From an uncultured Eubacteriales bacterium (GTDB lineage: Bacteria; Bacillota; Clostridia; Oscillospirales; CAG-382): DNA of 64,000 nt. Where the stretch lies: positions 72,878-136,877 of the forward strand of contig CAKSEL010000004.1 in the NCBI GenBank assembly GCA_934446675.1, read 5' to 3'. Both the position numbers and the translations under genes were made by a program. The notes beneath the pieces are model-generated. The model saw only the letters and a program-made list of their open reading frames with translations. It ran no database searches and was not told the origin of the DNA. This document shows, piece by piece, positions 30,760 through 44,084 of this stretch. Positions within the stretch are counted from its first letter, which is position 1. Each line of letters starts with the position of its first letter.

Positions 30760-30782
30760 ATGCTTAAATTTATAAATCTTAA

Positions 30783-30968
30783 TCTTATCAAGAGCGGCTG
30801 AGGGAACAGGACCGAAGATGCCCGGCAACCTGTCCGAACAAAATCCGGACAAGGTGCTACTTCCTGCATGATACCGGCGTTTGCGAAAACGCGCTGCGGT
30901 TATCATGAAAGATGAGAAGTAAACGACTTCTTCCCTGCTCTGATTTTTTCGGTGCAGGGTGTTTTTTT
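30783..30968 (+). promoter_or_regulatory. SAM-I (S-box) riboswitch with terminator expression platform
   Basis: CTTATCAAGAGCGGCTGAGGGA..GGACC..GAAGATGCCCGGCAACC...GGTGCTACTTCCTGCA...GAAAGATGAGAAG matches the S-box core. The terminator is CCCTGCTCTGA/TCGGTGCAGGG (30933-59) plus a T-run. Located upstream of metK. Confidence 0.9.
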
Positions 30969-30995
30969 CGGCACGGCAAAAGAAAGGAATTCAAA

Positions 30996-32180
30996 ATGAA
31001 AAAAGTATTATTCACATCGGAATCGGTAACGGAAGGACACCCCGACAAGATATGCGACGCCATATCCGACGCGGTGCTTGACGCCATAATCGAAAAGGAT
31101 CCGACGGCACGCGTTGCCTGCGAAACGGCTATAACCACGGGACTTGTACTCGTAACCGGAGAAGTTACGGCAAACTGCTATGTTGACATTCAGGGAATCG
31201 TGCGCGACACGATACGCGAAATAGGATACGACAGAGCAAAATACGGCTTTGACAGCGACACCTGCGCGGTTATCAGCTCAATTCACGAACAGTCTCCCGA
31301 CATCGCTCTCGGCGTTGACAAATCGCTTGAAGCAAAAGAGGGCGATACCGACAAGTATGACACCGGCGCCGGCGACCAGGGACTTATCTTCGGATATGCC
31401 TGCAACGAAACCAAGGAGCTTATGCCGCTCCCCATCTCTCTTGCGCACAAGCTCGCAAAACGCCTTACCGAGGTCAGAAAGAACGGCACTCTGCCTTATC
31501 TGCGTCCCGACGGAAAAACTCAGGTTACGGTTGAGTACACAGACGGAAAACCGTCAAGAGTCGACGCGGTTGTCGTTTCCTCTCAGCATGATCCCAAAGC
31601 CGAACTTGCGGCTATCAGACGCGACATCATAAGAGAAGTTATCCGTCCCGTAATTCCCGAAGAACTGCTCGACGAAAACACAAGATTCTTTATCAACCCG
31701 ACGGGACGTTTTGTAATAGGCGGTCCCAACGGCGACACCGGTCTTACCGGAAGAAAGATCATTGTCGATACATACGGCGGATATGCGCGTCACGGCGGCG
31801 GAGCATTCTCCGGAAAAGACCCGACAAAGGTTGACAGAAGTGCTGCATATGCCGCAAGATACGTTGCGAAAAACATTGTTGCGGCAGGTCTTGCGGACAA
31901 GTGCGAGGTTCAGATAGCATACGCGATAGGCGTTGCACACCCGATCTCGGTTCTGGTTGACACCTTCGAAACGGCAAAAGCCGACGAGGAAAAAATTTCA
32001 AAGGCTGTTTACAAGTGCTTCGATCTTCGTCCGGCTGCCATAATCGAAATGCTCGACCTCAGAAAGCCTATCTACAAGCAGCTCTCGGCTTACGGTCATC
32101 TCGGCAGAGAAGAACTCGGTGTTACATGGGAAAAAACCGACCGCGCAGAGGCTCTCAAAAAGGCGGTTGCGGAACTTTAA
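30996..32180 (+). CDS. metK: S-adenosylmethionine synthetase
   Basis: [64 protein letters not shown] 30996 follows AAAGAAAGGAA; the track start 30912 lies inside the riboswitch. Confidence 0.97.
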
Positions 32181-37235: not shown

Positions 37236-37721
37236 TTAAGTATGTTTTTGCAAATCCGGCATATAGAGAAAACTGTCCCTGTCGGGATATGAGTACGGCA
37301 CGGGCAATTCATCTTTGCTTATTCTGCGAAATCCGTTCTTTTCATAAAATTTATGCGATACGCACGCAACCGACGGCGTATCCAGTATGATGTGTCTGAC
37401 GCCGGCGTTCTCTGCAAATTCAAGCAGTTTATTATACAGTGCAAGTCCGACTTTCTGCGAACGGAACTCTTTTTTTACAAAAAACTTTTTCATTACGGCA
37501 CAATTACGCTCTTTCATCATAAGTCCGAGAGTTCCGATAACATTTCCGTCCGACAATGCAAGCCAGAATTCACCGCCGTTCTGACGATAACTTGCTTCTA
37601 TATCGAGCAAATCAGGCTGCTCTATGAGCGTCAGTCCGATTTTTGCTTCGTTATTCTGAATATCAAGAATCAGCGACACAATTTCTTTATCATATTTTCC
37701 GCTGTATGTTTCTATATGCAA
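37236..37721 (-). CDS. GNAT-family N-acetyltransferase
   Basis: KKFFVKKEFRSQKVGLALYNKLLEFAENAG (acetyl-CoA-binding motif A) and FYEKNGF. Confidence 0.8.
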   Translation of the reverse strand: MHIETYSGKYDKEIVSLILDIQNNEAKIGLTLIEQPDLLDIEASYRQNGGEFWLALSDGNVIGTLGLMMKERNCAVMKKFFVKKEFRSQKVGLALYNKLLEFAENAGVRHIILDTPSVACVSHKFYEKNGFRRISKDELPVPYSYPDRDSFLYMPDLQKHT

Positions 37722-37758
37722 TCTTAAAACACCTCAAAATTAATCTTATACAAACATT

Positions 37759-38199
37759 CTACGAAAGTTTCATATACAAAAGCGGATAAGGATTTCCCTG
37801 TTCGTCGGTTTTTGTTCTTTTAAAAGTTTCAAAGCCCATATGCTCATAAAATCCGGCAGCTTGCGGGTTTTGTTCGTTTACAGCAACCTCATTTACCCCG
37901 TAATTTTCAATGCCGTATCTTAAAAGCCGTTTTCCGAGACCCTTGCCGCGCTCATTTGGTGACAAAAACAGCATTTCCAGACGGTTATCCTGCGTTCCCA
38001 TAAATGCTATCGGTTCTCCGGAACGGTTTTCGGCAATTATCAAGTGCTGCACGCCGCAAAGAGCTTTCGGAACATATTTTTTGATACTGCTTATTTCTTC
38101 ATCGGAGAGAAAAAGGTGAGTTTCGCGCACCGAGGCTTCCCAAACGTTCAAAAGCGGCGTCAGCAGAGACGTTCTGTCATGTACTTCGTATATTTTCAT
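37759..38199 (-). CDS. GNAT-family N-acetyltransferase
   Basis: LFLSPNERGKGLGKRLLRYGIE and FYEHMGF. Confidence 0.8.
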   Translation of the reverse strand: MKIYEVHDRTSLLTPLLNVWEASVRETHLFLSDEEISSIKKYVPKALCGVQHLIIAENRSGEPIAFMGTQDNRLEMLFLSPNERGKGLGKRLLRYGIENYGVNEVAVNEQNPQAAGFYEHMGFETFKRTKTDEQGNPYPLLYMKLS

Positions 38200-38272
38200 T
38201 GTTTCACCTTATGTCTGATTATACCTCAGGTAAAAAACTTGTCTGTAACGGTATTTTTACGCGGTTGTAAAT

Positions 38273-38809
38273 TTACGCTTTCTCATTCAGCACGGCATAT
38301 TCAAGCTCGTCTTCCCAGTGTACGCCATCCGACTTCACATATCTGCATTTCTGTATGTAATGCGCCTCTCTGCGCATTGCGCATTTTTCCATTACTTTCC
38401 ATGAGGCGATATTATCAGGGTGGCAAAGCGCATAAACGCGGTGTACTTTTAATTCTTCAAAGCAATATTTAATCAGCGCTTTTGCCGTCTCCGCGGCATA
38501 GCCTTTTCCCCACTCGCCCTTTAAAAGCATCCAGCCTATCATTGCGGATTCCTCGTCATAGTTACGGGTAATCTCGGCTCTGCCTATCTTTTGGTTTGTC
38601 AGTTTATTTATTACTGCCATTTCATAATTTATCTGCGGCACTTTTCTCCACCCTGCCGTGATTTTTGCAAGGTGATCTTTTGCCGCGTCAATATCCATTA
38701 CCGGCAGCGGCATATATTTCATTATTTCTTCGTCAGAGTAAAGCTTAAAAATGATGTCAAGATCATCGTTGTCAAAAGCTCTTAAAATGAGACGTTCTGT
38801 TTCTATCAT
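38273..38809 (-). CDS. GNAT-family N-acetyltransferase (RimJ/RimL-like)
   Basis: MIETERLILRAF N-terminus, WGKGYAAETAKALIKYCFEEL, ALCHPDNIASWKVMEKCAMRRE. AAGGAAG upstream of ATG 38809. Confidence 0.8.
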   Translation of the reverse strand: MIETERLILRAFDNDDLDIIFKLYSDEEIMKYMPLPVMDIDAAKDHLAKITAGWRKVPQINYEMAVINKLTNQKIGRAEITRNYDEESAMIGWMLLKGEWGKGYAAETAKALIKYCFEELKVHRVYALCHPDNIASWKVMEKCAMRREAHYIQKCRYVKSDGVHWEDELEYAVLNEKA

Positions 38810-39067
38810 AAAATTCTTCCTTTTGAACATATACGATTTTATTATACAGATAAAGAGGTACAAACTGAACAACACGCGGTTAAAACTGTGTTGATTTTAA
38901 AGATCTTTTGACAAATTCATCAATTCAAAATTGCACTCCGCAGCAAAATCATAAAAATCCTATTTTGCAAATATGCTTTGTCAAAATAATTGTAACACAT
39001 TTTTCCGGTTTCTTCAATATATAAAATCCCTCTTTTTCTGCACAGAAAATTTGTACGGCTCGTTATG

Positions 39068-39129
39068 ACATATGCAAATTGCATATGTTCTTATTTTTGG
39101 TTTTTTAGTTATTCGTTTGGCATATGCAA
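39068..39129. promoter_or_regulatory. three copies of CATATGCAAWTT: a 21-bp perfect palindrome plus a third half-site next to the promoter (candidate operator set)
   Basis: ACATATGCAA-A-TTGCATATGT at 39068-39088 and CATATGCAA at 39121-39129, just upstream of the -35 of the HTH-protein gene. Confidence 0.4.
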
Positions 39130-39137
39130 TTTAGAGA

Positions 39138-39166
39138 TAGACAGCGCCCGGACATTATAGTATAAT
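39138..39166 (+). promoter_or_regulatory. promoter candidate of the AT-rich three-gene islet
   Basis: TAGACA, 17-nt spacer, TATAAT (39161-66). The SD GAAAGTGAGG follows. Confidence 0.45.
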
Positions 39167-39190
39167 AACCGTGAAAGTGAGGTATACAAT

Positions 39191-40429
39191 ATGTTTAAGA
39201 TCAACAGAGAAGAAATCGGGAATTACATTTCAAAAAGGATTTCCGATAATTCCACCAAATTCAAAAGCGACAGAGATTTTTGCCGTGAGTGGCTGAAACT
39301 AAACAATGAGGAAATAAATCCAGACAACATCCAAAACAAAGCCAACAAATTGTCACAGATAAAAAAGGGTACCAAAGGAATTCAGATTGATGATTTACCG
39401 GCTTTCTCCGAACTGCTCGGAGTATCATTTGAGCAAATTCTCAGCGCCGGAAATTCAGGGAAGGCAAACGAAAAAAGAATGACAAATTATTACATAGCAC
39501 AATCGCACAGTCAACAGGAATGGCAGGAATACATAGACAGAGAAGACAAGCCTATTTTGTGCAAAGACGAATTCGGCATAAACATCATTGAATACGCTAT
39601 ACAATTTCAAAACTATGATTTTCTAAAATTTCTGACAGAAAAAGGCTATATATGGTTTGACAGCCAGAAAGATGAAGACTATGTCACAACTTTCGGTGCA
39701 GGAACAAGCATTCAGAAAATCAACTTTGAAGACCGCGGAAACGGCATATTTGTACGCACCCCCGACATGAATGATATGGAATACAAATTAGCAACCGAGG
39801 ATCAGCTCAGAATGTATATGATAGCACTCGCCTGCGACAACGGGGATACTGATATGCTGGAAAAATTGCGTGCCAGAGAAATTCCCGGGCTATACTACAT
39901 GGCACATTATTTGTCGTGCTCGCATCCCGACATTAATGCAAGTTATAATGAGGCTGCCAAGAGTGCCGTGAAGAGAATCGCAAAATCAAGACACAAAGAA
40001 ATTTTAGAATACTTCACCGACAGTTTTGAAGTACGAGATCATGTCAAGTATAACGACGGCAGCAAGAGAAAACACGTTTTTGTCTACCCGTTTATTTCTC
40101 AATTATTAGATTATTTAATATCATATAACAGTCGTTTTACAGATATGGCGCTGAAAAAAATGATTGAATATAACAATTCCGTTTACGATAAACTGAAAAA
40201 ACTGATCAAAAATTCGACAGAAAACGGATGTTACACCGGCGACAGCTGGAAAAAGGAGCTTGACTTTTATAAAAACGGAAACATCGTAAGTTTCAGAGAT
40301 ACATATGCCGTTACCGGTATCATTACGAATATTGCGAATGCAACAAAGACATCAAAGAATCCCGAAACCAACAAACTGATTGATGAACTGCATAAAACAT
40401 ATGATCAAATCAGGCATTTAGGAAGGTGA
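39191..40429 (+). CDS. hypothetical protein with N-terminal XRE-like HTH and helical (ankyrin-like?) repeats
   Basis: 412-aa ORF with a good SD. The N-terminal ...GIQIDDLPAFSELLGVSFEQILS resembles HTH_3/XRE. INIIEYAIQFQNYDFLKFLTEKG and YMIALACDNGDTDMLEKL look like ankyrin-like repeats. AT-rich relative to its neighbours. Confidence 0.65.
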   Translation: MFKINREEIGNYISKRISDNSTKFKSDRDFCREWLKLNNEEINPDNIQNKANKLSQIKKGTKGIQIDDLPAFSELLGVSFEQILSAGNSGKANEKRMTNYYIAQSHSQQEWQEYIDREDKPILCKDEFGINIIEYAIQFQNYDFLKFLTEKGYIWFDSQKDEDYVTTFGAGTSIQKINFEDRGNGIFVRTPDMNDMEYKLATEDQLRMYMIALACDNGDTDMLEKLRAREIPGLYYMAHYLSCSHPDINASYNEAAKSAVKRIAKSRHKEILEYFTDSFEVRDHVKYNDGSKRKHVFVYPFISQLLDYLISYNSRFTDMALKKMIEYNNSVYDKLKKLIKNSTENGCYTGDSWKKELDFYKNGNIVSFRDTYAVTGIITNIANATKTSKNPETNKLIDELHKTYDQIRHLGR

Positions 40430-40433
40430 TTTC

Positions 40434-40603
40434 ATGACCGGAACATTCTTTGATTTTGACGATGGTGACTTTGCATACTTAATATGGCAATTGATTCTGA
40501 AGGAAATATGCTGCTACGCATAGCCGATAACATGGCCATGGATATAGAAACCGGCGATTTCCATATCGTTTCCGGCTGGAATGACGGCGAAGATGACTGC
40601 TGA
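40434..40603 (+). pseudogene. small acidic repeat-peptide gene split by an apparent 1-nt frameshift (29-aa plus 39-aa ORFs; about 56 aa if fused)
   Basis: Frame A is 40434-40523 (MTGTFFDFDDGDFAYL...). Frame B is 40484-40603 (MAIDSEGNMLLRIADNMAMDIETGDFHIVSGWNDGEDDC). The D-x-[DE]-x-G-[DN]-[FM] motif occurs once in A and twice in B. The frame A SD (GGAAGG) overlaps the upstream stop. The frame B stop overlaps the downstream SD. Confidence 0.35.
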
Positions 40604-40617
40604 AAGGAAAATTACTT

Positions 40618-41226
40618 ATGAATTCCACAAATTATGAATACCGAGATATTCCCGAAACGCAAAAAAAGAGAAGTCATAAAAAAATTATAATCACCGCAAC
40701 AGTCTTATCAATTATTGCAATCTCCGTGATATGCACTGTATTTGTAATCGGCAAGGAAAAAGAGATTATTTACTATGACAATCTGGAAAACGCCGCATAC
40801 AAAATGATTGACGGTGCGGCAAATGCAGAAAGTGCCGGCAATCTGATAACAGACGTCTGGTATAACGCAATTATGAACGAATATGATGATGATACGGACA
40901 AATTCACGCTGAAAGACGGTCAATTCGTTGATGATTTTAACGACGCGTTAGAAAATTTGTTTGCCGACGAGGCGTTTCTTGAGAACATATATGAAATCCG
41001 GGACAATCAGGATGAAGTTCTTTATCTGATGAAACAGCTCAAAAGTCCACCTGCAAAATACAAAGAGGCATATTCTGTTCTGAAAGAATATTACGGCAAT
41101 TATTTGTCAATGACCAACATGGTCATATCCCCATCCGGAAGTTTTCAATCATTTTCGGACGACTTAACCCAAGCGGATAAGGCGACGGCAAGCTCGTTTG
41201 ATAAGATTAAATTATATCTTAACTAA
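40618..41226 (+). CDS. membrane-anchored hypothetical protein (N-in, single TM, acidic helical ectodomain)
   Basis: Basic N-terminus, TM IIITATVLSIIAISVICTVFVIG, then a D/E/N-rich helical region. GAAAGGAAA SD. No family recognised. Confidence 0.65.
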   Translation: MNSTNYEYRDIPETQKKRSHKKIIITATVLSIIAISVICTVFVIGKEKEIIYYDNLENAAYKMIDGAANAESAGNLITDVWYNAIMNEYDDDTDKFTLKDGQFVDDFNDALENLFADEAFLENIYEIRDNQDEVLYLMKQLKSPPAKYKEAYSVLKEYYGNYLSMTNMVISPSGSFQSFSDDLTQADKATASSFDKIKLYLN

Positions 41227-41274
41227 TGAAATATAAAAAGGCAGGCTTAATTTGCACTGTCTTTTTTCTGTCAT

Positions 41275-41309
41275 ACAAAAAATCCCCCTGCCTGTTATTT
41301 GGCAGAGGG
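41275..41309 (-). terminator. rho-independent terminator of ppdK (about 150-nt 3' UTR)
   Basis: Minus strand CCCTCTGCC-aaataaca-GGCAGGGGG followed by ATTTTTTG. Confidence 0.7.
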
Positions 41310-41456
41310 ACTCATTTCGGATATAAATTGTATCACTTTGTCTTGCCCTTATGACGGCGCGAAGAAGGTATATGCCGCGGTCATTTGCCGCAAAACATAT
41401 TACCGTTTCCGTCAGGTCGTCAACCGGCAATTTTCAAGCAGCGGACAAACTTTGTC

Positions 41457-44084
41457 TCAGTGCTCCTTGATTGCAGCCTGTGCAGCAGCAAGTCTTGCTA
41501 TCGGCACACGGAACGGCGAGCAGGATACATAGGAAAGACCGATCTTATGGCAGAATTCAACGGAGGAAGGATCGCCGCCGTGTTCGCCGCAGATACCGAT
41601 ATGCATATCGGGTCTTACGCCTCTGCCAAGCTTAACTGCCATTTCCATGAGCTTACCTACGCCGACCTGGTCGAGCTTTGCGAAAGGATCGTTCTCGAAG
41701 ATCTTTGCGTCATAGTATGCATTGAGGAACTTACCGGCGTCATCTCTGGAGAAGCCGTAGGTCATCTGGGTGAGGTCGTTTGTACCGAAGCAGAAGAACT
41801 CAGCGTCCTTAGCTATATCGTCAGCGGTGAGTGCTGCTCTCGGTATCTCTATCATTGTACCTACTTCATACTTGAGGTCGGAGCCGCTTTCCTTGATGAT
41901 AGCGTCAGCAGTCTCAACAACGAAGTTCTTAACGTACTTGAGTTCCTTTTCATCTCCTACGAGAGGAATCATGATTTCGGGAACGATTGTCCAGTCGGGA
42001 TGAGCCTTCTTTACATTGATGGCAGCCTTGATTACAGCGCTTGTCTGCATCTTTGCGATTTCGGGATAAGTTACGGTAAGACGGCAGCCTCTGTGACCCA
42101 TCATCGGGTTGAACTCATGGAGAGATGCGATGATGTTCTTAATGGTCTCAACGCTCTTGCCCTGTGCCTGTGCGAGTGCAAGAATGTCAGCCTCTTCGGT
42201 GGGTACGAACTCATGAAGCGGAGGATCGAGGAATCTGATGGTTACAGGGTTGCCTTCGAGTGCCTCATAGAGCTTTTCAAAGTCGCTCTGCTGCATAGGT
42301 TCGATCTTTGCAAGAGCCGCTTCTCTTTCCTCAACGGTATCGGAGCAGATCATTTCTCTGAATGCTGCGATCCTGTCGGGATCGAAGAACATATGCTCTG
42401 TACGGCAAAGTCCTATACCTTCCGCACCGAGTTCTCTTGCCTTCTTAGCGTCGGTAGGAGTATCGGCGTTGGTTCTTACCTTAAGTCTTCTGTACTTATC
42501 TGCCCAGCCCATGATTCTGCCGAACTCGCCTGCGATCTTTGCGTCAACAGTCGGGATAATACCGTCGTAGATATTACCGGTAGAACCGTCTATGGAGATG
42601 AAGTCGCCTTCATGGAAGGTCTTGCCTGCAAGGACGAACTTCTTGTTTTCTTCGTCCATCTTTATGTCGCCGCAGCCGGATACGCAGCAGGTTCCCATAC
42701 CTCTTGCAACAACCGCTGCATGAGAAGTCATACCGCCGCGAACGGTGAGTATACCCTGAGATACCTTCATACCGGTGATGTCTTCGGGAGAAGTTTCAAG
42801 TCTTACGAGAACTACCTTTTCGCCCTTAGCAGCCCAGTTTTCAGCGTCTTCAGCGGTGAATACGATCTTACCGCAGGCAGCTCCGGGAGATGCGCCGAGA
42901 CCCTTGCCCATAGGAGTAGCAGCCTTGAGTGCCTTTGCGTCGAACTGCGGGTGGAGAAGTGTATCGAGGTTTCTCGGATCTATCATGAGAACTGCCTCTT
43001 CTTCGGTCTTCATGCCTTCGTCAACGAGGTCGCATGCGATCTTGAGAGCAGCCTGTGCGGTTCTCTTACCGTTTCTGGTCTGGAGCATATAGAGCTTCTT
43101 GTTTTCAACGGTGAACTCCATATCCTGCATATCGTGATAATGGTCTTCGAGAGTCTTGCAGACTTCGGTGAACTGCTTGAAAGCTTCGGGGAACTTGTTT
43201 TCCATTTCCTGAATCTTCATAGGAGTACGAACGCCCGCAACAACGTCTTCGCCCTGTGCGTTTACAAGGAATTCGCCCATGAGCTTCTTTTCGCCGGTAG
43301 CGGGATCACGTGTGAACGCAACGCCTGTGCCGCAATCGTCGCCCATGTTACCGAATGCCATCATCTGTACGTTGACTGCGGTACCCCATGAATAAGGAAT
43401 ATCGTTGTCACGTCTGTAAACGTTTGCTCTGGGGTTATCCCATGAACGGAATACCGCCTTGATTGCGCCCATGAGCTGTTCCTTAGGATCGGACGGGAAG
43501 TCTGTGCCGATCTTGGACTTATATTCAGCCTTGAACTGTTCAGCGAGTTCCTTAAGATCGTCAGCGGTAAGCTCTACATCAAAGGTAACTCCCTTCTTTT
43601 CTTTCATTTCGTCGATGAGCTGCTCAAAATACTTCTTGCCGACTTCCATAACGACGTCGGAGTACATCTGAATAAATCTTCTGTAACAGTCATATGCCCA
43701 TCTGGGGTTGCCCGACTTCTTTGCCATAACCTCTACAACCTCTTCGTTAAGACCGAGGTTAAGAATGGTATCCATCATACCGGGCATGGATGCACGCGCA
43801 CCCGAACGAACCGATACAAGCAGAGGATTCTCATGGTCGCCGAACTTCTTACCGGTGATATGTTCCATCTTGTCGATGTATTCCATGATCTGTGCCTGAA
43901 TCTCGTCGTTGATCTGTCTGCCGTCCTCATAATACTGAGTACAAGCCTCTGTTGAAATGGTGAAGCCCTGAGGAACAGGAAGACCGATCTTGGTCATTTC
44001 CGCAAGGTTCGCGCCTTTACCGCCGAGAAGCTCACGCATGGAAGCGTCGCCTTCGCTGAAAAGGTATACATACTTTTTGCTCAT
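41457..44084 (-). CDS. ppdK: pyruvate, phosphate dikinase
   Basis: MSKKYVYLFSEGDASMRELLGGKGANLAEMTKIGLPVPQGFTI, phosphohistidine loop GGMTSHAAVVARG, C-terminal PEP-utilizer TIM barrel GICGEHGGDP. Confidence 0.97.
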   Translation of the reverse strand: MSKKYVYLFSEGDASMRELLGGKGANLAEMTKIGLPVPQGFTISTEACTQYYEDGRQINDEIQAQIMEYIDKMEHITGKKFGDHENPLLVSVRSGARASMPGMMDTILNLGLNEEVVEVMAKKSGNPRWAYDCYRRFIQMYSDVVMEVGKKYFEQLIDEMKEKKGVTFDVELTADDLKELAEQFKAEYKSKIGTDFPSDPKEQLMGAIKAVFRSWDNPRANVYRRDNDIPYSWGTAVNVQMMAFGNMGDDCGTGVAFTRDPATGEKKLMGEFLVNAQGEDVVAGVRTPMKIQEMENKFPEAFKQFTEVCKTLEDHYHDMQDMEFTVENKKLYMLQTRNGKRTAQAALKIACDLVDEGMKTEEEAVLMIDPRNLDTLLHPQFDAKALKAATPMGKGLGASPGAACGKIVFTAEDAENWAAKGEKVVLVRLETSPEDITGMKVSQGILTVRGGMTSHAAVVARGMGTCCVSGCGDIKMDEENKKFVLAGKTFHEGDFISIDGSTGNIYDGIIPTVDAKIAGEFGRIMGWADKYRRLKVRTNADTPTDAKKARELGAEGIGLCRTEHMFFDPDRIAAFREMICSDTVEEREAALAKIEPMQQSDFEKLYEALEGNPVTIRFLDPPLHEFVPTEEADILALAQAQGKSVETIKNIIASLHEFNPMMGHRGCRLTVTYPEIAKMQTSAVIKAAINVKKAHPDWTIVPEIMIPLVGDEKELKYVKNFVVETADAIIKESGSDLKYEVGTMIEIPRAALTADDIAKDAEFFCFGTNDLTQMTYGFSRDDAGKFLNAYYDAKIFENDPFAKLDQVGVGKLMEMAVKLGRGVRPDMHIGICGEHGGDPSSVEFCHKIGLSYVSCSPFRVPIARLAAAQAAIKEH

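Follow-up and report, generated by a model that had tools for sequence, protein, structure and literature searches.

A very probably self-regulated operon of an HTH-ankyrin protein, a partner-swapping acidic protein, and a membrane protein next to ppdK in an uncultured Eubacteriales bacterium

We analyzed a compact AT-rich operon located next to ppdK in a 64,000-nucleotide (nt) stretch of DNA (hereafter, the window) from contig CAKSEL010000004.1 of an uncultured Eubacteriales bacterium. Three open reading frames (ORFs) on the + strand, designated A, B, and C, lie between a GNAT gene (38273-38875, − strand) and ppdK (41457-44084, − strand). An earlier reading made from the letters alone (the sequence-only reading) had placed them on the strand opposite to both flanking genes, and this was the case. 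The genes and predicted control elements of the operon are listed below.

39068-39088, operator O1: perfect 10+10 palindrome ACATATGCAA-A-TTGCATATGT, core ATATGC-N5-GCATAT
39109-39132, operator O2: degenerate, TTATTC-GTTTG-GCATAT, overlapping CATATGCAATTT; half-site at 39121-39132
39138-39166, + strand, promoter: sigma-70-type, TAGACA-17 nt-TATAAT, 11 of 12 consensus matches
39191-40429, + strand, gene A: 412 amino acids (aa); XRE-type helix-turn-helix (HTH), ankyrin region, and uncharacterized alpha/beta C-terminal half; predicted autoregulator
40434-40603, + strand, gene B: pseudogene of a 59-aa acidic all-beta repeat protein
40618-41226, + strand, gene C: 202 aa; single-pass membrane protein with the N terminus inside

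The stop codon of A lies within the following Shine-Dalgarno sequence (AGGAAGGTGAtttcATG), B starts at 40434, 4 nt past that stop, and AAAGGAAA follows the stop codon of B. The layout strongly supports A, B, and C being one transcription unit from one promoter. The sequence-only reading had described a tightly packed unit with its own promoter, operator-like repeats, and stop codons overlapping the next Shine-Dalgarno sites, and all of these were found: the promoter, the perfect palindrome O1, and the further half-site in O2.

We compared the region upstream of A with those of homologous loci (loci used in the comparison are numbered with the prefix L). The center of O2 is 39 nt from that of O1, and O2 abuts the −35 box. 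The O1 core occurs exactly once in the window, where 0.14 occurrences would be expected even with one mismatch allowed. It was found upstream of an A homolog in 30 fetched loci, always on that side, usually about 110-130 nt and in some loci up to about 165 nt from the A start, and it was kept even at A homologs only 34% identical. The upstream regions of homologous loci align column by column, from O1 and O2 through the −35 and −10 boxes to the ribosome-binding site. L039 and L042 carry two exact operator sites 39 nt apart. In a second clade, the A-like proteins (361-389 aa) share the architecture of window A, and homology between the two clades is only weakly supported (hhalign probability 50%, E 1.6e-4, 110 columns; blastp 8e-4). 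Genes of this clade are preceded by other paired palindromes, GTCAAATTTGAC and AGACAAC-N5-TTGTCT, and the recognition-helix sequence also differs from that of the clade of window A. A joint difference in operator pair and recognition helix is the pattern expected if the HTH reads the operators.

These comparisons strongly support a picture in which the operator, the promoter layout, and the A gene appear to travel together through dozens of genomes of Lachnospiraceae and other Clostridia. As gene, operator, and promoter layout occur together and the operator changes with the HTH, which is strong comparative evidence for self-regulation, A very probably binds the two palindromic operators upstream of its own promoter and controls the operon. 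The position of O2 against the −35 box favors repression. We have high confidence in this anatomy of the operon and its predicted autoregulation.

The domains of A were defined on an AlphaFold2 model (predicted local distance difference test score, pLDDT, 82.6), which comprises a five-helix N-terminal domain, a helical ankyrin region, and an alpha/beta C-terminal half. The approximate limits are residues 1-90 for the HTH domain and 100-160 for the ankyrin region, and the C-terminal domain comprises about 220 aa. The helices of the HTH domain (6-19, 27-37, 44-59, 66-76, and 80-84) are arranged as in an XRE (Cro/CI) fold. Foldseek matched the domain with a probability of 1.0 and target-normalized template modeling (TM) scores of 0.55-0.79 to ClgR, a mycobacterial XRE protein, C.AhdI, C.BclI, and phage cI-like proteins. 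The match by sequence was weak (Pfam HTH_19, E = 0.24). In the ankyrin region, window A scored 19.5 bits against Pfam Ank_4, below the cut-off of 22.7, and Ank_2 was matched in 67 of the 74 close homologs (best E 1.2e-7). Several homologs carry a precomputed PF12796 match and the public name "ankyrin repeat domain-containing protein". The XRE-like HTH of the sequence-only reading thus stood, and its "helical repeats" are better described as ankyrin repeats. These models and matches strongly support a prediction of A as a DNA-binding protein composed of an XRE HTH, ankyrin repeats, and an uncharacterized C-terminal domain.

Over its full length, the fold of A was closest to PrgX, ComR, and PlcR, and these matches were weak (E 0.01-0.5, TM 0.14-0.21), those to PrgX and ComR lying at E 0.013-0.09. 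A has 451 close homologs. Grouped at 50% identity, the family forms at least 547 clusters with E up to 1e-3. A value of 1e-30 is reached by 221 of these, and almost every match spans the full length. Conservation is centered on the HTH and ankyrin parts (130 members, 28-49% identity), and window A holds every family-invariant position of the close alignment. No nuclease-like or catalytic motif was conserved across the same 130 members, and the C-terminal half was therefore rejected as a nuclease or other enzyme. A Rep3-type initiator was also rejected: WH1/Rep3_N (PF01051) matched at E 0.0016 in the window protein only, one of 74 members, and no iterons or tandem repeats were found. A match of A to a CBASS cyclase (NCBIfam, E 0.02) was taken as noise, given the short stretch and low score. 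Matches of A to viral structures in Foldseek were limited to the HTH and ankyrin parts.

Across 38 species-level genome loci, the A homolog was the only constant gene, and its contexts vary widely. Elsewhere A is solitary or has a lipoprotein gene 18 nt 3' of it (9 loci); GNAT genes are also close to A in L006, and most A genes lack B. The A genes were AT-richer than their flanks in 31 of 32 loci (35.6% vs. 43.5% GC). The evidence supports A, B, and C behaving as accessory genes.

As the sequence-only reading had proposed, C is a single-pass membrane protein with an acidic ectodomain. It has one hydrophobic segment (residues 20-48 approximately) after the sequence KKRSHKK, with the N terminus predicted inside, and an ectodomain of about 150 aa with 29 acidic and 13 basic residues (isoelectric point, pI, 4.1). 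Relatives of C are 50-62% identical. The ectodomain carries the motifs MLDGAA.AE.AGNLI..VWYNAI, DFNDAL..LF.D, and NPP..Y.EAY, and all 34 invariant columns of an alignment of 40 sequences are present in the window protein. Most relatives have an N-terminal cytoplasmic double zinc ribbon (PF12773/PF13240) and a minority lack it. C matched PHROG 24226 and 4852, both families of unknown function; a match to CARF_TM (PADLOC, E 0.0015) was dismissed as noise for the same two reasons as the cyclase match of A. Prophage contigs contain distant relatives of C, placed among tail genes, next to serine recombinases, or flanked by an XRE repressor and an integrase, and one relative is phi3T_133 of Bacillus phage phi3T (26% identity). 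B was not found near the ten viral relatives of C. In the 289-aa protein P0223, the C-terminal part of an A-like protein is joined to the membrane segment and ectodomain of C. This fusion probably arose by a deletion between adjacent genes and confirms that A and C adjoin in a further genome.

Gene B is broken in the window. Three same-species contigs (L001, L002, and L005), which match the window at about 97% DNA identity over 10-17 kb, have an intact B of 180 nt, which encodes the 59-aa protein MTGTFFDFDDGNFAYSISDNMAIDSEGNMPLRIADNIAMDIETGDFHIVSGWNDGEDDC. In the alignment with these contigs, window B lacks 10 nt (CAATATCTGA) between 40479 and 40480, and the resulting frameshift leaves ORFs of 29 aa (40434-40523) and 39 aa (40484-40603). 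The loss lies between two CAATAT repeats and looks like slippage. The small acidic repeat peptide of the sequence-only reading does belong to an acidic repeat family; the 39-aa ORF it had taken for a gene is the 3' part of the broken 59-aa gene.

The B protein starts with MTGTFFDFDDG, has 14 acidic residues and 1 basic residue, and contains no hydrophobic stretch. Its net charge is about −14. Of the 59 residues in family members, about 16 are acidic and 2 basic. A search with a profile built from six B sequences identified at least 2,641 clusters at 90% identity. In the AlphaFold2 model of B (pLDDT 80), six short strands form three hairpins, matching three DNMAMD..G repeats. Foldseek found nothing similar to this model in the PDB (best E 2.7), and Pfam and PHROGs have no model for B.

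To describe the partners of B, we recorded the gene directly 5' of B on the same strand in 114 B-carrying loci. The main classes are listed below.

Small HNH protein: 59 loci
C-family membrane protein: 16 loci
Basic 87-aa protein: 10 loci
A or A-like protein: 10 loci
Nucleotidyltransferase-like protein, 213-229 aa: 6 loci
Another zinc-ribbon membrane protein: 3 loci
RNase III-like protein: 2 loci

The gap preceding B was 12 nt in 57 of the 114 loci. The census strongly supports B being a promiscuous last or next-to-last gene of its cassettes. The HNH partner has 103 aa and scored 25 bits against Pfam HNH_4 (cut-off, 22), and PHROG HNH families agree with this assignment. The HNH-B pair moves between varied surroundings, often behind an AAA_15 ATPase that matches AriA (3e-29) as well as AbiLi, Old, and PtuA. 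In a recurrent cassette (e.g., L057 1720-4180; also L058, L145, L162, and others), the AAA_15 ATPase is followed by the 103-aa HNH protein and B, sometimes with a small HTH gene after the ATPase; the ATPase cluster is present in 17 loci. This cassette looks like a Septu- or PARIS-like pair with a small acidic gene added. The nucleotidyltransferase-like proteins, which have a GS...DxD motif, are encoded directly 5' of B or between an A-like gene and C (L053 4339-4980, L065 3297-3986, and L067 3334-4020), and their sole match was a weak one to a PADLOC oligonucleotide cyclase (E 0.002). The very basic 87-aa protein is rich in Asn, Lys, and His, ends with WPDWAPDYPDYDD (L046-L049 4716-4979), and has no family match. 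In L110 (2035-3180), HNH, B, C, and a second B are followed by HTH_17 and tyrosine integrase genes on the opposite strand.

A, B, and C also recur as a set. A-like, C, and B occur in this order in L050-52, and A-like, nucleotidyltransferase-like, C, and B in L053-55. Of the 16 loci in which C precedes B, 7 have an A-like gene and 3 a nucleotidyltransferase-like gene 5' of C. The B-then-C order of the window is found in L134, L145, L147, and L153. The arrangements strongly support B and C being recurrent partners.

The site 3' of ppdK is variable among lineages. In L145, which comes from a more distant organism and tells the most about the site, the genes ATPase-HTH-HNH-B-C are arranged with C convergent with ppdK, and the 5' module stands in place of A; identity to the window is 82% for PpdK, 61% for C, and 62% for B at the aa level and about 73% for C and ppdK at the DNA level. 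An A-type gene comes after ppdK in L038 and L042 (34% identical, with B next) and in L044 (48% identical, at the contig end). Including the window, ppdK thus adjoins an A-type gene in four lineages. These arrangements indicate that the 3' flank of ppdK is an old variable locus at which the 5' gene is exchanged, rather than the site of a recent single insertion.

Within the species, A, B, and C were present at the same site in five of five contigs, and A and C are full-length and 98-100% conserved. Shortly beyond the ppdK stop, the match of the window to every same-species contig is lost within a 72-nt segment (41364-41436). L002 has an inserted serine-recombinase element at the equivalent of window position 41364 (L002 5758-12810), which encodes ParB, Vsr, an HpaII-type restriction enzyme, and two DNA methylases besides the large serine recombinase.

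The GC content of 38876-41275 is 37.25%, compared with 45.8% for the whole window, the lowest value anywhere in the 64 kb being that of 38876-41275 (sliding 2400-nt windows: mean 45.8%, standard deviation 2.3%). The GC content at third codon positions (GC3) is 0.43 for A and 0.42 for C, compared with 0.55-0.59 in ppdK, a sigma-factor gene, secD, pgm, and an ABC gene. It is also low (0.43-0.47) in the three GNAT genes to the left, so that the compositionally odd zone spans approximately 37236 to 41226. No integrase or transposase gene was found among the ORFs of 38876-41275. An island bounded by a tRNA gene or att repeats was rejected, as the 64-kb window contains no tRNA genes and the intergenic direct repeats are operator elements only. 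Several statements of the sequence-only reading bear on these data. The AT-rich composition and the lack of integrase, transposase, and att repeats hold; the composition shift reaches beyond the boundary it had drawn. Its "inserted islet" is accessory and AT-rich, but the five same-species contigs and the old variable locus speak against a recent single insertion.

The surroundings of B cassettes include defense and mobile-element genes: the AriA/PtuA-like ATPase, SoFic, AbiTii, type I restriction-modification (R-M), integrase, HTH_17, TnpV, and Fic. TnpV (PF14198) genes or fragments are located beside A or B modules (L050 5226-5351, L053 5994-6224, L062 2368-2739, and L046 583-954), and the TnpV cluster is present in 18 B loci. 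This repeated adjacency suggests that such cassettes occupy the ends of integrative elements, Tn4451-like or otherwise. Prophage-like contigs likewise carry B, and Dorea phage NatCom_31361 has it between its tail genes and the gene for the tape-measure protein. In siphophage-like genomes, isolated accessory B or C homologs lie among tail genes and by the tape-measure gene (L066 4001-4177, L075 3743-4558, and L163 4001-4189); examples are the Dorea phage for B and an IMG/VR contig for C. In searches of Pfam, NCBIfam, PADLOC, and the PDB, the three products matched nothing past ankyrin and HTH, and PHROGs returned only families of unknown function; that none of the three belongs to a characterized family was also the view of the sequence-only reading. 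The same applied to toxin families, none of which was matched by A or C in Pfam, NCBIfam, or PADLOC, and to the A-like, C, and B proteins of the sister loci, which had no significant match in PADLOC-DB 2.0. No known signaling family was matched either. Literature searches for the architecture returned nothing useful.

We tentatively favor an explanation in which A-B-C is a self-regulated conflict module, although as a whole we give it somewhat less than an even chance. The operon would be aimed at phages or mobile elements. A would keep it repressed until its sensor half, formed by the ankyrin and C-terminal regions, is engaged. C would act at the cell surface in the manner of a prophage exclusion protein, and B would bind and restrain nucleic-acid-binding or basic partners as an antitoxin or guard. 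In this strain, where B is broken, the module would run without B or decay. We infer the role in conflict with phages or mobile elements from the gene neighborhoods only, and a conflict or exclusion function of the operon, taken by itself, is possible but rather doubtful.

Several observations weigh against this explanation. A was not found in IMG/VR viral contigs, GenBank phages, or PLSDB plasmids. The operon is fixed at one site within the species, so that no presence/absence polymorphism points to recent mobility. B is frameshifted while A and C are intact, which indicates that B is dispensable or that the module is decaying. Window C lacks the zinc ribbon of most relatives, having only 22 residues before the membrane segment and no CxxC pairs. 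The predicted transcription start lies about 95 nt downstream of the center of O1, a long distance for a simple repressor. The window proteins had no significant match in PADLOC-DB 2.0 (best E 0.0015-0.006, over short stretches), and searches of NCBIfam and of the sequences of solved structures with A, B, and C gave nothing. Finally, the neighborhoods were sampled via matches to B or A, with no background control set.

Comparison with known systems places the components as follows. A resembles CI/Cro-type and XRE autoregulated repressors and the controller proteins of R-M systems in its five-helix XRE HTH and in the two palindromes by its own promoter. It differs from them in its length of 412 aa, with ankyrin repeats and a domain of about 220 aa in place of a dimerization or peptidase domain, and, unlike the phage CI/Cro repressors, it was not present in any phage collection searched. 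The cassettes of L057, L058, and L145, with an AAA_15 ATPase followed by a small HNH protein, resemble Septu (PtuA ATPase and PtuB HNH) and the PARIS/AbiL pairs. The window, however, has neither the ATPase nor the HNH gene and carries A in that position; in the cassettes, the HNH protein is only 103 aa, and the added B (and C) is not part of the described systems.

Prophages encode small superinfection-exclusion membrane proteins or lipoproteins of the Sie2009 and Ltp types. C, by its predicted topology, is likewise a small protein that is anchored at the N terminus and exposes a domain outside the cell. Prophages carry its relatives as accessory genes among tail genes or between the repressor and integrase genes, and A is followed by a lipoprotein gene in nine loci. 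In contrast to Sie2009- and Ltp-type proteins, many relatives of C add a cytoplasmic double zinc ribbon.

For B, the closest analogy is Panacea (DUF4065), a hyperpromiscuous antitoxin domain (PMC8832971): in both cases, one small family stands beside many unrelated partners in two-gene cassettes on mobile elements. B has no sequence or fold relation to Panacea; it is a 59-aa all-beta protein and is dispensable in this strain. Ankyrin repeats also serve in polymorphic toxin systems, where Imm-Ank proteins confer immunity against HNH-fold toxins (PMC3482391). A, through its ankyrin repeats, and B, through its neighbors, are tied to HNH contexts by association only. A differs from Imm-Ank in having a DNA-binding domain and its own operator, and no secreted toxin gene is adjacent in the window.

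A more far-reaching version would make the B family a large undescribed group of 59-aa, highly acidic three-hairpin beta proteins that act in gut Clostridia as a portable guard or antitoxin for a wide set of unrelated effectors that bind nucleic acids. These would be HTH-ankyrin regulators, small nucleotidyltransferases, and the minimal HNH nucleases from Septu-like pairs of ATPase and HNH. On this view, A-B-C would be a new exclusion system of three components, directed at phages or mobile elements, in which an ankyrin-sensor repressor unleashes a surface membrane protein. We regard this combined proposal as speculative and improbable in full.

Other explanations were weighed against the conflict module. 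The operon could be the decaying, functionless remnant of an old element at a recombination hotspot 3' of ppdK. The broken B, the missing zinc ribbon of C, the splitting of the neighboring GNAT gene in sister strains, and the serine-recombinase element of L002 at about 41364 would all fit. However, A and C are full-length and 98-100% conserved in the same-species contigs, A keeps all family-invariant positions, and promoter and operators are intact; we consider decay unlikely.

A tripartite toxin-antitoxin system would assign A as the regulator, B as the acidic antitoxin, and C as the membrane toxin, in the order of paaR-paaA-parE, with the HNH protein or nucleotidyltransferase as the toxin elsewhere. 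The location of B directly 3' of HNH nucleases and small nucleotidyltransferases with a 12-nt gap, and the mobility of HNH-B as a pair among contexts, are consistent with this model. Autoregulation through a palindrome, predicted here, is a property of type II systems, and partner-swapping antitoxin domains such as Panacea are known (PMC8832971). A required antitoxin would be kept beside its toxin, yet B is frameshifted next to intact C and A, and the ten viral relatives of C have no B nearby. A is often solitary or accompanied by a lipoprotein gene. No toxin domain was recognized in A or C, and the HNH partners of B occur only in sister cassettes. It would also be unusual for one 59-aa protein to neutralize nucleases, nucleotidyltransferases, and a membrane protein directly. 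On balance, we judge a toxin-antitoxin system quite unlikely.

HTH autoregulators that bind inverted repeats beside genes for small acidic proteins are the pattern of anti-CRISPR loci and their Aca regulators. A, its operators, and B resemble this pattern, and B could be an anti-defense DNA mimic directed against restriction or other nucleases, with A-B-C as element cargo at a hotspot and A as an Aca-type regulator. The small size of B (59 aa), its net charge of about −14, and its presence in phage genomes and at the edges of integrative elements (HTH_17, integrase, TnpV, and serine recombinases) fit such a role. The fold of B, however, matches no known mimic, and B does not stand alone but is closely coupled to the HNH or membrane-protein gene 5' of it. 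The locus itself is chromosomal, fixed in the species, and outside any element, and A was missing from the phages and plasmids searched. An anti-defense role is about as improbable as a toxin-antitoxin system.

A could instead be a housekeeping regulator of the adjacent GNAT gene or ppdK. A is divergent from the GNAT gene and the two share a 315-nt intergenic region; GNAT genes are near A in L006 as well, and an A-type gene adjoins ppdK in four lineages, including the window. We consider this very unlikely, as the operator occurs only once in the window and in other genomes accompanies A rather than GNAT or ppdK, A is found in widely differing contexts, and the linkage to ppdK occurs in either orientation and also with HNH replacing A. 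Least probable of all is a signaling cassette like those of the RRNPP family (PrgX, ComR, PlcR, and AimR), with A as an HTH-repeat receptor and B as a pro-peptide gene: the HTH followed by helical repeats, the small gene 4 nt 3' of the receptor gene, and the weak full-length structural matches to PrgX, ComR, and PlcR recall that family, but the repeats of A are ankyrin and not tetratricopeptide repeats, B is a predicted folded acidic beta protein with no signal sequence or hydrophobic N terminus to export it, B is shared with HNH and other partners and pairs with HNH far more often than with A, and most A genes have no B.

Of the three proteins, B, acidic and partner-swapping, offers the most interesting lead. 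Its exchange of partners, especially the tight coupling to minimal HNH nucleases beside ATPases of the Septu- or PARIS-like kind, suggests that such systems have a new accessory component. A, B, and C all come from sizeable uncharacterized families that are common in human and animal gut Clostridia, and these families are placed where defense, toxin-antitoxin, and mobile-element genes sit. The conserved operator is an immediate, testable handle on A. Should the conflict role prove wrong, what remains is a clearly defined pair of regulator and operator and a hotspot of recombination 3' of ppdK.

The flanking genes and the intergenic region between C and ppdK contain the following features.

38273-38875, − strand, GNAT gene: Pfam GNAT (Acetyltransf_3)
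41280-41313, no strand assigned, GC-rich hairpin between convergent C and ppdK: 13-pair stem, T-tract on the ppdK strand
41457-44084, − strand, ppdK: pyruvate phosphate dikinase domains found on a 99.8%-identical homolog

The hairpin at 41280-41313 probably also ends the A-B-C transcript. A weaker hairpin with a T-run is located at about 41240-41270 on the + strand. The GNAT gene is whole in the window, and in the same-species loci L001-L005 it is split into two ORFs (89 aa and 62-84 aa). Its tblastn identity in L001-L005 is only 84%, within a region of 97% DNA identity. Comparison of the window with the same-species contigs thus shows that GNAT is broken where B is intact, and vice versa.

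A 668-aa ORF (41385-43391, + strand) runs antisense to ppdK. Its product has a high content of Cys, Leu, and Ser. Nothing supports this ORF, which most likely arose by chance on the complement of GC3-rich ppdK. Elsewhere in the window, a SAM riboswitch (RF00162, 68 bits) was detected at 30782-30918 on the + strand, directly 5' of an S-adenosylmethionine synthetase gene (30912-32180).

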